Notes: generated from the sequence alone by a model not told the origin. Numbered from the stretch's first letter, positions 4,361-8,796 are shown. The stretch: DNA of 10,401 nucleotides from a virus (IMGVR_UViG_2671180770_000023); one strand, 5' to 3'. Numbers and translations: made by a program.

Positions 4361-4855
4361 TTATAAAAACGCGTCGCACTCGTCTGTTGTTATTGCGTTA
4401 GTCTGCGTTACCCCCTTAACTTTCCGCGTAATATATTCATGTCCGTAAACTTTTGCGGCAGGCTTCATAGCCTTGCCAAAGTCATTTACGTTTAGCGGTT
4501 TGCTCCTGCCTGCGTATGCCATAAACGCCAGATAGACGCGGTAAAGGCTGTTCCTGGTCGTGTACTTCACTGAATCGCCACCGCCGCCCATCATCAGGCC
4601 GCGTGCTTCCTCCAGAAAATTCAGGAACTGGCAAAACTCAATAACCGGATCCGTCTGTTGCTTTATTGCCAGAGCTTCATCACCGTCACGCTGTTCCAGT
4701 AGTAAAGCCCGTGCCTTCTCAGGGTCGGTAAAGTTCGCCAGCAATCGGCGGATAATGACAGGGATTTCAGCCGCGATCTTTTCCGGTAGCTCCCTGTCTT
4801 TTTCGGCCTCACTGACGATATTGTCGAAACGGAAAATCACGCGACGACGTGCCAC
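4361..4855 (-). CDS. P4-family primase/helicase, C-terminal segment, out of frame with the upstream segment (164 aa)
   Basis: Begins at a GTG. Sequence (A)RRRVIFRFDNIV...DPVIEFCQFL continues the conserved post-NTPase region expected after ...GVW in this family. Overlaps the upstream ORF by 19 nt in a different frame. Confidence 0.7.
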   Translation of the reverse strand: MARRRVIFRFDNIVSEAEKDRELPEKIAAEIPVIIRRLLANFTDPEKARALLLEQRDGDEALAIKQQTDPVIEFCQFLNFLEEARGLMMGGGGDSVKYTTRNSLYRVYLAFMAYAGRSKPLNVNDFGKAMKPAAKVYGHEYITRKVKGVTQTNAITTDECDAFL

Positions 4856-6108
4856 ACCCCGGCCCGTTCGGTGAATATCATCGGGTTATTGTTGGTCGCC
4901 AGCACCACCGCCCTGATTACAGCCGTGAAACGCTTTTCGTATTTCGGGTTAATTTCCACGGGGTCACCGCCCGTGATTTTCTTGATGCCCGTTCCTTCGC
5001 CTGTATATTTCGGCTGGTCAGCCAGGACGATAAGACGACTCCCGACAACCTGCGCACGTCCACCAGCATCATCAAGCGATGTCATTTCAGCGCTTACCGT
5101 GTTCTGTTTCCCTGCCAGAAGGCTGGCTATGTGCGTGAATGTACTTTTACCGCTCCCGCCGTCTCCGGTGGCCTCAATAAACATCTGCCAGTCGTACCGG
5201 TTCGCCATAATCATGTACAGCGCGGCACATATACGCATCATCTTGCGCGGGTCTTTTCCGGCTGCGTGCTTAAGCCATTTATGAAAGTTTGGCGCGTTAT
5301 CGCGGATGTTCTCCCCTGGTGCTGGTGGCGTGTACTCAATGCCGTTGTGCGTGGTGATCCAGTTCTCCGGCGTGTGCGGGGAAAATTCCCCCGTTTTCAG
5401 GTCAAGCGCACCATTGGCGAACGGCAGCAAATCGCCGGACGGCTCGCCCATTGGTTCGGCAATAACTTTTAACGCTTCCACGGCGTTATTGATTACGCGC
5501 TTGCTGAAAGTGGCCCTGTGCTCTGAATAGATCGCCACCATTTCGCGGCTAAGTTCCATTGTGCTGACCGGACACCATACCCCGCCGCGCCATACGTGAA
5601 CGATTTCACTTTCCTGATGCACACAAACGCCATCAAAGCGCTCGGCAAGCAGCTGCGCGCGCTCACTGTCTGCCATTTGTGCCAGTTGCGTATTTTTCTG
5701 CTCCGGCATGGTAAGCCCTGCGGCAATATTTTCACGCTCAGCATTCAGATAGCGCCGCCAGTTTTCACACTTCTGGACGTGCATTCCTTCGTGGTAAAAA
5801 TTTGCGTCCTGAATATCTGCCGCCGCCAGCTTCTGACCAATCTTTTTGGTCTCCACCAAATCCAGTTCTCCGGCCTGGTACAGCCTTACGCGTTTTTTTC
5901 CATCCGGAACAATTTTCAGTGCATCAAGTTCGGCAAGCTGATTTGGCCCAAGCCACACAGGCGGCACATTATCGCCGGATGCGGGGCCGTCCTGCTCCTG
6001 CCACTGTTTTGCATGTGCCCACGCATCACTACCCGCGAAAATAATTACCTCTGTGTCTTTGTGTTTTATTCCGCGTGGTTGTTTTTTTACGTTCGGTGCC
6101 AGTTTCAT
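4837..6108 (-). CDS. P4-family (D5-like) primase/helicase, N-terminal domain plus P-loop NTPase segment (423 aa)
   Basis: Walker A GDGGSGKST, Walker B-like RLIVLAD and KKITGGDPVEINPKYEKRF motif typical of the phage/plasmid primase P4-family C-terminal domain. AGGGG SD 6 nt upstream. ATG overlaps the upstream stop as ATGA. Confidence 0.8.
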   Translation of the reverse strand: MKLAPNVKKQPRGIKHKDTEVIIFAGSDAWAHAKQWQEQDGPASGDNVPPVWLGPNQLAELDALKIVPDGKKRVRLYQAGELDLVETKKIGQKLAAADIQDANFYHEGMHVQKCENWRRYLNAERENIAAGLTMPEQKNTQLAQMADSERAQLLAERFDGVCVHQESEIVHVWRGGVWCPVSTMELSREMVAIYSEHRATFSKRVINNAVEALKVIAEPMGEPSGDLLPFANGALDLKTGEFSPHTPENWITTHNGIEYTPPAPGENIRDNAPNFHKWLKHAAGKDPRKMMRICAALYMIMANRYDWQMFIEATGDGGSGKSTFTHIASLLAGKQNTVSAEMTSLDDAGGRAQVVGSRLIVLADQPKYTGEGTGIKKITGGDPVEINPKYEKRFTAVIRAVVLATNNNPMIFTERAGVWHVVA

Positions 6109-6637: not shown

Positions 6638-6860
6638 CACAAATTTTCTCCCTTATTCTTTTAATGTCCTCATTAAGGATGTCTGTAACTTTTATCAGCG
6701 AGTTTTTGGCAATTATTTTTATTGTTTTAAGTTTTCTTTTGTCGTGCTCCGACTGTGATTTTCTCTCCATAATCTCCACCATGTGGGTAACATCAACGAG
6801 CGCACGTATCAGTATTTGCATTGCTTCTTCTGCTGCGTCCGGTGTGGTTTTATTGCACAT
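6630..6860 (-). CDS. Hypothetical small protein (76 aa) in AT-rich patch
   Basis: Internal ATG at 6860 chosen over the ORF-track start at 6914 because GGAGGGG lies 5 nt upstream and it avoids a 65-nt out-of-frame overlap. Confidence 0.5.
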   Translation of the reverse strand: MCNKTTPDAAEEAMQILIRALVDVTHMVEIMERKSQSEHDKRKLKTIKIIAKNSLIKVTDILNEDIKRIREKICDA

Positions 6861-7080
6861 GTACCCCTCCGCATTTTTTTTCGTTAGAAATAAGCGTTCT
6901 TCTTTCCTGTTCATCGATCAGGAATACGCAGACCTCACCGCTAAGGCGTTTAAGTAAGCCGATGATTGCCCCTGATTCGCTGTCGGTCATCATGCCAGGG
7001 TAATCCTCTGCCAGTGCGCAAATAACTTCGATTTGGTGGGCGCGTTCTGCTGCCTGTTGTAGTGTGATTTCCTGGCTCAT
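6850..7080 (-). CDS. Hypothetical small protein (76 aa)
   Basis: ATG at 7080 overlaps the stop of the Icd-like gene as ATGA. The longer ORF-track version (start 7200) would overlap the Icd-like gene out of frame. Confidence 0.5.
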   Translation of the reverse strand: MSQEITLQQAAERAHQIEVICALAEDYPGMMTDSESGAIIGLLKRLSGEVCVFLIDEQERRTLISNEKKCGGVHVQ

Positions 7081-7244
7081 AAGCCTACCCCCTGACGAAT
7101 ACGGGCGACAAAAATCAGATGTGCGTGCGGCAGCTGGGCGCGGGCTTCGCGTTCTGTTGCTGCCGTGACGGTAAAGAGTGATGTTTGTTTTTCCTGGCAC
7201 TGCATAAAGCGCCAGACAAAGTAAGGGCGTGCGGATACAGCCAT
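7077..7244 (-). CDS. Icd-like / Ash-family-like small protein, copy 1 (55 aa)
   Basis: Motif VWRF...TEREAR...FVARIRQG. TAGGAGCC SD 8 nt upstream of ATG at 7244. Family call is from recalled motif, not a search. The frame stays open upstream to 7580 (see findings). Confidence 0.5.
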   Translation of the reverse strand: MAVSARPYFVWRFMQCQEKQTSLFTVTAATEREARAQLPHAHLIFVARIRQGVGL

Positions 7245-7530
7245 GTGAAAGGCTCCTACAGTAATTTTAAGGAGTCTCGCTACTACGCTGCTAAACGGGG
7301 TGGCGAGACGTAACAGGGTTAGCAGACTGGCACTGTAGGAACCAGCGAGCGCAAAGGCTCCCCCGTTACGCCCCGCCATAATGCGGGTATGGGTAGGCTT
7401 ACGGACACAAAAAAACCGCATATCGGAATATAAGCGGCTGTCCGCTACAGTATTCAGGCTGCTAAACCCGGTCGCCATGTGGGCGACGGGGGAAGCATAC
7501 AGCCCCGTTATAATTTTTTGCAAGCGGTTT

Positions 7531-7728
7531 TTACGCATGATGTGACCCCTGACGAATACGGGCGGCGAATACAGCAACACAACCGGACGGGCAACGGCTA
7601 CGCGCTTCGCGTTCCGTCCAGGCGGTTACGTGGATGATTTGAGATTCTCCGGCACTCAGTGCCAGAAAACGCCACACAAAGGCCGTTTGTGTGTGTACAA
7701 GGTGTGGTATATGATTTACAGCAACCAT
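7531..7728 (-). CDS. Icd-like / Ash-family-like small protein, copy 2 (65 aa)
   Basis: Motif VWRF...TEREAR...FAARIRQG, paralogous to copy 1. CTAGGAGCC SD 5 nt upstream of ATG at 7728. Confidence 0.5.
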   Translation of the reverse strand: MVAVNHIPHLVHTQTAFVWRFLALSAGESQIIHVTAWTEREARSRCPSGCVAVFAARIRQGSHHA

Positions 7729-7897
7729 AACGGCTCCTAGTTTACGTTGTTGGTTAGAAGCCCTGCGAGTGGTAACGACACTTGCGGGGCTTTGTCTTTT
7801 CATCGATTACCTTGATAAAGGTGTCAGCCACGTCAATAGTGTTTTTCCGTTTTCTTGTGTGTATACTGTCAGCCACCTAATAACGAGGAAATCAGAT
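7729..7897. promoter_or_regulatory. Divergent intergenic control region between the leftward early operon and the rightward small-gene pair
   Basis: Plus-strand -10-like TATACT (7862-7867) upstream of the RBS GAGGA (7884-7888). Direct 10-bp repeats TGTCAGCCAC at 7822-7831 and 7867-7876. I could not find a convincing -35/-10 pair for the leftward operon. Confidence 0.45.
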
Positions 7898-8077
7898 ATG
7901 GCAACAAAAGCAGTTAATGCAAAATCCAAAAAGCTTGAGGCTCGAGTACCTCACGCAATAGCTGATGCTGTAGAAAATTTAAAGGAAGATGGCGAAAGTA
8001 CAGGGCAATTTATCGTTTCGGCACTTGAAGGCGAGATCAAACGCCGCCAGCGCCGCAAGGCCAAAGAATCAGAATAA
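7898..8077 (+). CDS. Small DNA-binding protein, probable ribbon-helix-helix (Arc/CopG-like) regulator (59 aa)
   Basis: Internal ATG with GAGGA SD 9 nt upstream, preferred over the SD-less start at 7769. KLEARVPHAIADAVENLKEDGESTGQFIVSALE fits a strand-helix-helix pattern. Basic C-terminal tail. Confidence 0.55.
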   Translation: MATKAVNAKSKKLEARVPHAIADAVENLKEDGESTGQFIVSALEGEIKRRQRRKAKESE

Positions 8078-8134
8078 TCACTATCAGCGCCGTGGTGTGA
8101 GGTATTACGGCGCATTGCTATGCAGGACAACACA

Positions 8135-8308
8135 ATGACTGATAAAGAATTGACCAAAACATTATCACCGGCACGGAAAAGACGGCGCAGAAAGATAGAG
8201 CATGAATCAGAAAGATTCGCGCCATGTGCTTTTGCCCTTGAGCAATTCCTTAAAGAGTATAGGGAAAAGCGCTCATTGCAGGTATGGCAACGAACTGAAC
8301 CAGACTGA
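8135..8308 (+). CDS. Hypothetical small basic protein (57 aa)
   Basis: Second ATG chosen because AGGA lies 7 nt upstream. Contains an RKRRRRK stretch. Followed by a terminator at 8404-8430. Confidence 0.45.
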   Translation: MTDKELTKTLSPARKRRRRKIEHESERFAPCAFALEQFLKEYREKRSLQVWQRTEPD

Positions 8309-8403
8309 TTGCATTGCCCACCAGCCTGATAGCGGCTATCATCCCCGTGCTTATGTTTGGGATCACATACACATAAGGCGCAGCGGGTTAATTGTTCAGA
8401 AAG

Positions 8404-8430
8404 GCGGCTCCATATCGGGGCCGCTTTTTT
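8404..8430 (+). terminator. Rho-independent terminator closing the plus-strand gene pair
   Basis: GCGGCTCC (8404-8411) pairs with GGGGCCGC (8417-8424), one G-U pair, 5-nt loop, then T6 (8425-8430). Confidence 0.65.
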
Positions 8431-8456
8431 CGTGTTTGTCATATCTGTGATACCCG

Positions 8457-8663
8457 TTAAGCAGCCGTTCCGCGTGCTTCCTGTTCGCGTTCTTTCTGCC
8501 AGGCCAACACATCATCCTCATACCATCCGCGACGGCGTAAACCAACGCGAAAACCCTGCGGAAATTCTCCGGCGTTGATCATGCTTTGCAGCGTGCTGTC
8601 TGCCTTGCTGTGGATAATTTTTTTTACTTCCTGGCGAAAGATAATTTTTCTGATTGCTTCCAT
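8457..8663 (-). CDS. alpA: AlpA-family phage regulatory protein (68 aa)
   Basis: STLQSMINAGEFPQGFRVGLRRRGWYEDDVLAWQKER matches the AlpA / prophage CP4-57 regulator pattern (recalled AlpA: ATIYDWLNPKSPRYDATFPKKRMLGVKSVGWIEAEIDEWLSQR). AAGG 8 nt upstream of ATG at 8663. Confidence 0.8.
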   Translation of the reverse strand: MEAIRKIIFRQEVKKIIHSKADSTLQSMINAGEFPQGFRVGLRRRGWYEDDVLAWQKEREQEARGTAA

Positions 8664-8796
8664 CGTGATTTACCTTGTGAATCCGGTGTATTCCGGTGAC
8701 AAATACGGTAAATCATCGGATATGGGTAAAAACAGTTCCCACCGTTTTTAAACGGTATACACCGTTTTTTATATTGATGATTTGAAATGGAATTAT

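Follow-up and report, generated by a model that had tools for sequence, protein, structure and literature searches.

The window, that is, the whole stretch of 10,401 nt analysed here (IMGVR_UViG_2671180770_000023), is a Gram-negative phage-inducible chromosomal island (PICI) of E. coli and a relative of the EcCICFT073 type. It carries an integrase, an AlpA-like gene, the Icd zone, DUF4222, a P4-type primase, SSB, and capsid and small-terminase genes, and comparison with the EcCICFT073/Nissle 1917 island gives 86% coverage at 95% identity; a scan for tRNA and tmRNA genes returned no match. All genes and RNA features of the Icd zone are on the minus strand, and the coordinates of the short repeats are read on the plus strand (Table 1). 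Two small Icd-like genes, icd1 and icd2, which have the Shine-Dalgarno sequence AGGAGCC in common, are separated in this zone by a spacer that holds a leader, an antisense RNA gene, and several pairing sites. The first-pass annotation had taken the two genes for Icd-like duplicates and recommended a profile search, and this kinship is borne out: judged by profile scores, both are members of NF033153 (NCBIfam, 'host cell division inhibitor Icd-like protein'), exceeding its curated cut-off on a model where P4 Kil and P7 Icd reach 76.1 and 52.7 bits, respectively, and inhibition of cell division remains a putative function. In Pfam, neither small ORF finds a family. The stop codon of icd2 overlaps the start codon of the next ORF (ATG at 7080), and from this arrangement the 76-aa ORF appears to be translationally coupled to icd2 and to lead into the DUF4222-primase replication operon. 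A 901-bp region of the locus was matched in 1161 of 5426 complete E. coli genomes. In RefSeq, the homolog is annotated solely as a 153-aa 'Icd-like protein' CDS (PGAP), with the RNA left out.

Table 1. Coordinates of genes, RNA elements, pairing sites, and repeats in the Icd zone of the window
Feature	Position	Strand	Remarks
icd1	7728..7531	-	65 aa, Icd-like; NF033153 64.7 bits (cut-off 25)
eta-like 153-aa ORF (462 nt)	7077..7538	-	ATG 7538 overlaps the icd1 stop (AUGCGUAA, 7538..7531)
icd2	7244..7077	-	55 aa, Icd-like, Kil/Icd equivalent; NF033153 56.2 bits (cut-off 25)
First ORF downstream of icd2	6850..7080	-	76 aa, phrog_1478; AUGA overlap with icd2 (7080..7077)
Predicted internal sigma-70 promoter	7494..7523	-	TTGCAA 7523..7518, 18-nt spacer, TATGCT 7499..7494
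Leader (c4-a1b1 / IsrK / P4 seqA equivalent)	7409..7500	-	RF03163 and RF01394 matches
Leader hairpin	7487..7471	-	5' hairpin
Terminator-like CCGC..GCGG-U7	7437..7409	-	End of the isrK match
C4/CI-type antisense RNA	7296..7383	-	88 nt; RF01695 71.5 bits against gathering 45, E 9.6e-13
b1 (upstream target) GUUUAGCAGC	7467..7458	-	In leader
a1 (upstream target) UACUGUAG	7452..7445	-	In leader
a' (C4 apical loop) UCCUACAGU	7340..7332	-	Read from sequence
b' (C4 junction) CUGCUAAC	7325..7318	-	Read from sequence
b2 (downstream target) GUUUAGCAGC	7296..7287	-	Part of the downstream operator 7253..7296
a2 (downstream target) ACUGUAGGA	7262..7254	-	Overlaps the icd2 Shine-Dalgarno GGAG 7256..7253
Repeat GCTGCTAAAC	7287-7296, 7458-7467	+	Inverted partner GTTAGCAG at 7318-7325
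Repeat CTACAGTA	7256-7263, 7445-7452	+	
Repeat AAAGGCTCC	7248-7256, 7353-7361	+	
Repeat CCCCGTTA	7361-7368, 7503-7510	+	
Hairpin GTCGCC-atgtg-GGCGAC	7471-7487	+	First hairpin of both the c4-a1b1 and isrK models

A C4 antisense RNA and its targets

In an Rfam scan of the whole window, C4 (RF01695) was the sole match above its gathering score, and it is full length (model positions 1-87 of 87). The covariance-model search proposed by the first-pass annotation, which had named the CI immunity RNA of P4 as a possible precedent, thereby places a complete C4 antisense RNA in the spacer, and the precedent turns out to be genuine homology, since the P4 CI RNA matches the same model with 74.9 bits; P7 c4 also matches, with 69.6 bits. 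By blastn, positions 7286-7475, covering leader and C4, match the c4 region of P1, P7, and their relatives with about 80% identity; in P7, this region is annotated as an antisense RNA acting on icd and ant. Folded as a single sequence, the C4 element reaches -45.4 kcal/mol (z = -4.9) and adopts the three-way junction of the family, a long closing stem with two hairpins; RNAalifold with P4 and P7 gives 28 pairs, 9 of them compensatory, and the minimum-free-energy fold is identical. On these comparisons, the spacer RNA is a C4-family member with homologs in P1, P7, and P4, by analogy with which, and with Gifsy-1, it would be processed to a stable species. In the family, this product is an RNA of about 77 nt that RNase P releases from a longer transcript and that acts as a repressor in trans.

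Two further Rfam models, each below its gathering score and seen only at looser thresholds, match the leader that precedes the C4 gene. The c4-a1b1 model (RF03163), whose gathering score is 46.7, reaches 45.5 bits (E 4e-10, positions 1-53 of 53) at 7500..7451, in the position where such an element is expected and with a b1 that covaries with b'. The isrK model (RF01394) aligns in full at 7487..7409 with only 35.7 bits against 50 (E 7e-6), unlike Gifsy-1, and is also matched by P4 seqA; by these scores, the leader resembles the isrK family and is not a member of it at the curated score. The fold of the leader has a z of -1.6, and its terminator is weak and was not called by a generic promoter/terminator scan. 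The same scan reported no minus-strand promoter, and the internal promoter listed in Table 1, which matches only 8 of 12 consensus positions, is a candidate predicted purely by positional homology: its -10 element TATGCT aligns with TATAGT/TATGAT upstream of P4 seqA, of P7 a1b1, and of the upstream module of a relative that carries two modules (L021). Transcription is predicted to start at about 7487, where the isrK model begins as well; this lies downstream of ATG 7538, and a transcript of this kind would be unable to encode the 153-aa form.

The short repeats and the hairpin that had been listed in the spacer at first pass were each found again on the plus strand at the position given or within 1 nt of it. 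Two of the repeats, AAAGGCTCC and CCCCGTTA, for which covariation was sought in relatives and none seen, may be due to chance; the others, from the comparisons described below, are functional sites, namely the C4 loops a' and b' and the two target sets. The composite motif TTAGCAG-N(3-30)-ACTGTAG occurs three times in the window, always in the spacer, with 0 occurrences expected from shuffles, and the three correspond to the two targets and the complementary C4 itself.

Evidence that these sites pair comes from related loci, 132 of which were gathered from IMG/VR and genomes and searched with a C4 model built here. A C4 precedes an Icd-like gene at 31 of them (28 close icd2 relatives and 3 P1-like loci), with the 3' end of C4 consistently 51-52 nt ahead of the Icd-like start. 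Across 16 distinct sequences, all cells are paired both between a1/b1 and a'/b' (192/192, with 6 pairs changed on both sides) and between a'/b' and a2/b2 (224/224, with 8 pairs changed on both sides); when the partners were slid by 1-3 columns as a control, 15-50% of cells were paired and few pairs changed on both sides. The alignment contains at least seven a' loops and two b' junctions, and each change is mirrored in both targets. This constitutes direct comparative evidence that the C4 RNA recognises both target sets.

The repeats could instead be regarded as chance or as debris of the duplication between tandem genes, with no RNA regulator present, an account to which the lack of covariation in AAAGGCTCC and CCCCGTTA would lend itself, as would the fact that 8-9-mer repeats within 300 nt are not rare by chance. 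It is left with practically no probability, however, by an RF01695 score 26 bits above gathering, compensatory covariation at three sites with 100% pairing, a target motif with 0 chance occurrences expected, and the homology of the spacer to the experimentally defined c4 gene of P1/P7; the RF01695 match and the loop-target covariation refute it. The spacer is very likely a module for RNA-based immunity, of the P1 immI / P4 type, residing on an E. coli phage-inducible chromosomal island.

The reading frame across the RNA gene

The 153-aa ORF crosses leader, C4, and target sites before ending as icd2. The first-pass annotation had noticed that this frame stays open through the whole spacer up to ATG 7538, and the observation holds: in the frame of icd2, there are 0 stops in the 98 codons from ATG 7538 to ATG 7244, against 7 and 6 in the two remaining frames. 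The frame is stop-free in 111 of 20000 dinucleotide-preserving shuffles (P≈0.006). The choice that had been derived from it, between a larger Ash-like protein with a low-complexity N-terminus and a structured RNA, is a false one, given that the RNA is nested in the ORF in the manner of P4 eta/kil, the interval 7538..7077 containing leader, C4, and icd2 together. What had looked like a low-complexity N-terminus is the conceptual translation of leader and C4 over these 98 codons. The label 'Ash-like' does not survive either, since neither the 153-aa nor the 167-aa ORF has a match at E<=1 in Pfam, including PF10554 Phage_ASH. BLASTP of the 153-aa ORF against P4 Eta likewise gives no significant alignment, and the relation between the two is visible only via shared profiles and RNA models. 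Phage_ASH is matched by P4 Eta (82.4 bits) and by the upstream ORF of L021 (41.9 bits), and in both the match covers exactly the translated seqA-CI-seqC RNA stretch.

These observations bear on the possibility that the 462 nt encode a genuine 153-aa protein of the Icd/Ash family, whose N-terminal 98 residues are functional and in which the RNA signals are secondary. The PGAP call of the homolog, the openness and conservation of the frame, a phrog_29966 alignment over residues 4-151, and the Phage_ASH matches of P4 Eta and the L021 upstream ORF could all be read in this way. Nevertheless, this appears quite improbable: the searches of Pfam and of P4 Eta are empty, and the coincidence of the Phage_ASH matches with seqA-CI-seqC means that constraints on the RNA can explain the conservation of the family. 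Moreover, the L028 and L035 haplotypes shift about 30 codons into a different frame without acquiring a stop, so the peptide is not conserved, and orf45, the equivalent in Gifsy-1, is conserved in nucleotides and not in amino-acid sequence (PMC4825925).

Conservation of the frame itself is extensive. Of 28 close relatives, 27 keep it free of stops through C4, and only L033 has a frameshift, from a 1-nt deletion in a T-run; two independent indel patterns are frame-compensated (+1/-1), and the ATG of the long ORF, together with its overlap with the icd1 stop, is kept in all haplotypes. The corresponding frame is open at 7 of 7 loci in the paralogous upstream module (P=0.04) and also in P4 (P=0.02-0.04). 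In P1/P7 and the P1-like loci L046, L049, and L050, the Icd frame is closed in the presence of the same RNA module, which indicates that read-through translation is not needed for module function. In addition, nucleotide conservation of the spacer is high, the mean column identity of the alignment being 92%, so that part of the frame conservation reflects shared ancestry.

The open frame might be a passive by-product of recent ancestry and of nucleotide constraints imposed by promoter, leader, C4, and targets, with 7538-7245 never translated. Besides the nucleotide identity just given and the P1/P7-type modules that work with the frame closed, the frameshift tolerated in L033 and an alternative frame across C4 that is also open for about 41 codons speak for such a reading. 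It is nonetheless somewhat unlikely, as it must accommodate the shuffling result for zero stops, the restoration of frame by independent +1/-1 indel pairs, and an ATG overlapping the icd1 stop in every haplotype. It must further accommodate open frames in three diverged lineages, namely the window type, the upstream paralog, and P4, the upstream paralog reaching only 49 bits where the window type obtains about 100 on the same model. Experimental precedent for translation exists as well, in P4 eta (PMC10111431) and Gifsy-1 orf45 (PMC4825925). The RNA therefore lies inside an ORF that is probably translated for regulatory reasons. A more specific version, in which the stop-free frame is selected as a 'translation override', with ribosomes handed over from icd1 at AUGCGUAA, transcripts made at induction evading the immunity RNA of the island, and the peptide irrelevant, is put forward tentatively, as a possibility rated a little short of even.

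Comparison with known systems and a proposed mechanism

Modules of this kind have already been described as P1 immI, the P4 immunity region, Gifsy-1 isrK, and the 'Bro zones' of PICIs. In P1/P7, immI is arranged as a1b1 - c4 antisense RNA - b2a2 - icd - ant1/2, and the window shares with it RF01695, the DNA identity over leader and C4 noted above, and the same order with target sets on both sides. The distance from the end of C4 to the Icd-like start is 51 nt in the window and 50 nt in P7; in both systems, a2 lies on the ribosome-binding site of icd, and a stop/start overlap couples the Icd-like gene to its downstream neighbour. The cargo differs, being the antirepressor Ant in P1/P7 and a satellite replication operon (DUF4222, P4-type primase) in the window. 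Unlike P1/P7, the window has no evident C1 operator and possesses an extra upstream Icd-like gene, and the Icd frame, which is open back through C4 in the window, is closed in P7 by 3 in-frame stops.

The P4 immunity region (PLE - seqA - CI RNA/seqB - seqC; eta/kil) resembles the window in other respects, in addition to the match of its CI RNA to the C4 model. P4 Kil consists of the 65 codons that close a longer ORF through seqA, CI, and seqC, and is thus, like icd2, the Icd-like tail of a long ORF spanning the RNA gene. The frame of that ORF relative to the RNA is the same in both (AUG-GNN at the 5' stem), as is the position of a candidate promoter inside it; in both, its start overlaps an upstream gene, and replication genes, including a P4-type primase, follow downstream. 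Sequence identity between P4 and the window is below detection by blastn or BLASTP, however, and the upstream coupling partner is icd1 in the window and an AlpA homolog in P4. A Phage_ASH match is found for P4 Eta and is undetectable for the window ORF, and the pairing of the window a2 with the Shine-Dalgarno sequence follows P1 and differs from P4. In P4, a constitutive promoter lies inside eta, and production of Kil depends on read-through; translation of eta, which prevents termination, requires an upstream promoter and is coupled to the upstream gene (PMC10111431).

A third comparison is offered by Gifsy-1 isrK - orf45 (STnc1160) - anrP, in which the leader, like that of the window, has two 5' hairpins and a Rho-independent terminator (PMC4825925). 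There, a species of about 80 nt is processed from read-through transcripts, and orf45, which lies over this RNA, is translated and AUGA-coupled to anrP (PMC4825925). What may set Gifsy-1 apart from the window is that translation is activated there in trans by the short leader RNA and that the output is an antirepressor/AntQ cascade (PMC4825925). Finally, C4 and isrK Rfam matches have been reported inside 'Bro zone' genes of Gram-negative PICIs and helper-embedded PICIs, for which a role in immunity was proposed (PMC10111431). Those islands share int, alpA, the icd/Bro zone, primase, and capsid genes with the window, and the report gives no per-locus anatomy (PMC10111431).

From these parallels, a mode of action can be sketched. 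In the resident state, transcription would start near 7487 from the internal promoter (about 7523-7494), and the leader would carry b1, a1, and the terminator-like hairpin, with read-through transcripts carrying the 88-nt three-way-junction C4. Its a' and b' would pair with b1/a1 and also with b2/a2, which cover the icd2 Shine-Dalgarno sequence. Such pairing would block translation of icd2 and of the AUGA-coupled ORF, and polarity or termination would silence the replication operon further downstream (DUF4222, P4-type primase), an output suggested by analogy with P1, P4, and Gifsy-1. On transcripts arriving from upstream of icd1, ribosomes would traverse the leader, C4, and the operator, and RNA immunity would be overridden; here, the act of translation would matter and the amino-acid sequence would not, with the 153-aa ORF presumably acting like P4 eta or Gifsy-1 orf45. 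The RNA itself is secure, and the chances that the ORF has the override role are about even.

Current understanding is unchanged by this locus: studies of P1, P4, and Gifsy-1 have already established the mechanism, and its occurrence in PICIs is on record. Publications likewise cover the RNA family and its targets, the link between Icd and Kil, the nested ORF of the eta type, and the C4/isrK matches in PICIs. Modest additions are the detailed anatomy for this type of island, covariation at three sites across many specificities, the orthogonal modules that relatives carry in tandem, and the coincidence of Phage_ASH matches with the translated RNA region, from which the conservation of that family may be seen as stemming from RNA constraints. 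Recognition of the module offers an explanation for the silencing of the replication operon in such satellite islands. Should translation override be true, the Pfam family Phage_ASH would amount largely to an RNA gene in conceptual translation, the PICI family would carry a combinatorial RNA specificity code with at least seven a and two b types, and the tandem orthogonal modules of some members would allow several satellites to be co-resident without cross-repression.

Origin of the tandem genes and distribution of the module

The two Icd-like genes are explained by comparison with L021. Positions 7800-7645 of the window align to 1588-1740 of L021 and positions 7702-7087 to 2043-2658, and the interval of about 300 bp between these segments of L021 is occupied by a complete second module, with a promoter of its own, both target sets (b1/a1 and b2/a2), a strong terminator, and a C4 that differs in a'/b'. 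Judged from this alignment, icd1 is a hybrid, which in relatives is split into two Icd repeats flanking the second C4 module; the window therefore retains one intact module next to an Icd gene that recombination between the Icd repeats, or the reverse event, has left behind. A remnant C4 upstream of icd1 was also considered and rejected, since Rfam models match nothing in 7729-7950 at E<=5 and L021 shows a clean deletion between the Icd repeats.

The module is not a constant companion of Icd-like genes. A search of genome contigs with icd2 yielded only 4 distant loci, which are without C4, and Rfam searches of 20 icd1-only or distant loci detected no C4, implying that most Icd-like genes lack this RNA and that the module behaves as a cassette. 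The EcCICFT073/Nissle copy, which has a single icd and lacks the C4 module where the window has one module and the hybrid icd1, points to the same cassette-like behaviour. Some relatives, on the other hand, carry two orthogonal modules, and with their compensatory changes at three sites, the loop and its two targets, the relatives provide a natural data set for the specificity of RNA-RNA recognition.

Possible alternative pairings in the leader and the C4 precursor

Two sets of potentially competing pairings emerge in the spacer between the Icd-like genes icd1 and icd2. In the leader, AAAAACCGC (window 7524-7532) is a perfect 9-nt complement of GCGGUUUUU (7411-7419), which forms the 3' arm of the leader terminator. 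Transcription from the predicted internal start site would begin downstream of AAAAACCGC, leaving this element to long transcripts only; speculatively, it could act as an antiterminator confined to upstream-initiated transcripts. In the C4 precursor (window 7274-7309), the 3' arm of the closing stem, GUCUCGCCAC, has a possible alternative partner downstream, GUAGCGAGAC; this pairing also appears in the computed fold and puts the target b2 into a hairpin loop of the unprocessed precursor. In the same fold (z -3.7), a' and b' of C4 are paired in cis with their upstream targets a1 and b1.

C4 modules and the Phage_ASH family in related loci

Some relatives carry an additional, diverged C4 upstream of icd1, scoring 47-60 bits with our C4 model R1. 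Read by eye, this second module in the related locus L021 has its own promoter, targets, and strong terminator, and it differs in specificity, with CUUCAGU as a' and GGCUAA as b'; the two therefore constitute orthogonal RNA immunity modules in tandem. Phage_ASH (PF10554) matches residues 21-145 of P4 Eta and residues 74-167 of the upstream ORF of L021, and in both cases the match coincides exactly with the translated seqA/a1b1, CI/C4, and seqC elements. RNA constraints may be the main cause of the conservation of the 'Ash protein family'. At a Pectobacterium locus with a distant Icd-like gene (L007), where no C4 was found, an int-alpA RNA (RF02996) is detected at 60.9 bits.

Coordinates of features in the window and in related loci
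Feature	Locus	Position	Strand	Remark
163-aa ORF	window	7951-8442	-	without family match
YlcI/YnfO-family gene	window	7898-8077	+	NF041551, E 1e-16
P4-type primase, part 1	window	6108..4837	-	423-aa ORF
P4-type primase, part 2	window	4855..4361	-	164-aa ORF
Second C4 region	L021	1741-2042		also L014, L022, L024, L025, L028, L032, L035, L135 at about 1884-1971
Phage_ASH match, P4 Eta	L003 (P4)	8330-8704
Phage_ASH match, upstream ORF	L021	1774-2055
int-alpA RNA	L007	4375-4441

The region upstream of icd1 and the primase gene

Upstream of icd1, the 163-aa ORF runs antisense to the YlcI/YnfO-family gene. Its homolog in Nissle is labeled by PGAP as an 'icd-like protein' pseudogene with the C-terminus missing, and in the related locus L063, one unbroken 356-aa ORF spans the corresponding region and continues into icd1. 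Possibly, the 163-aa ORF is what remains of an eta-like long ORF, or extends one. The icd1 leader also contains a hairpin with a 15-bp stem (window 7757-7793), for which no Rfam match was found; the scan scored it as a plus-strand terminator, yet no plus-strand gene stops there.

The P4-type primase of the window (4361-6108, minus strand) is made up of two ORFs, whereas Nissle 1917 and JNEC-KY179 each encode the homolog as a single CDS of ~584 aa. The frameshift near 4837-4855 points to a pseudogene or a sequencing error.
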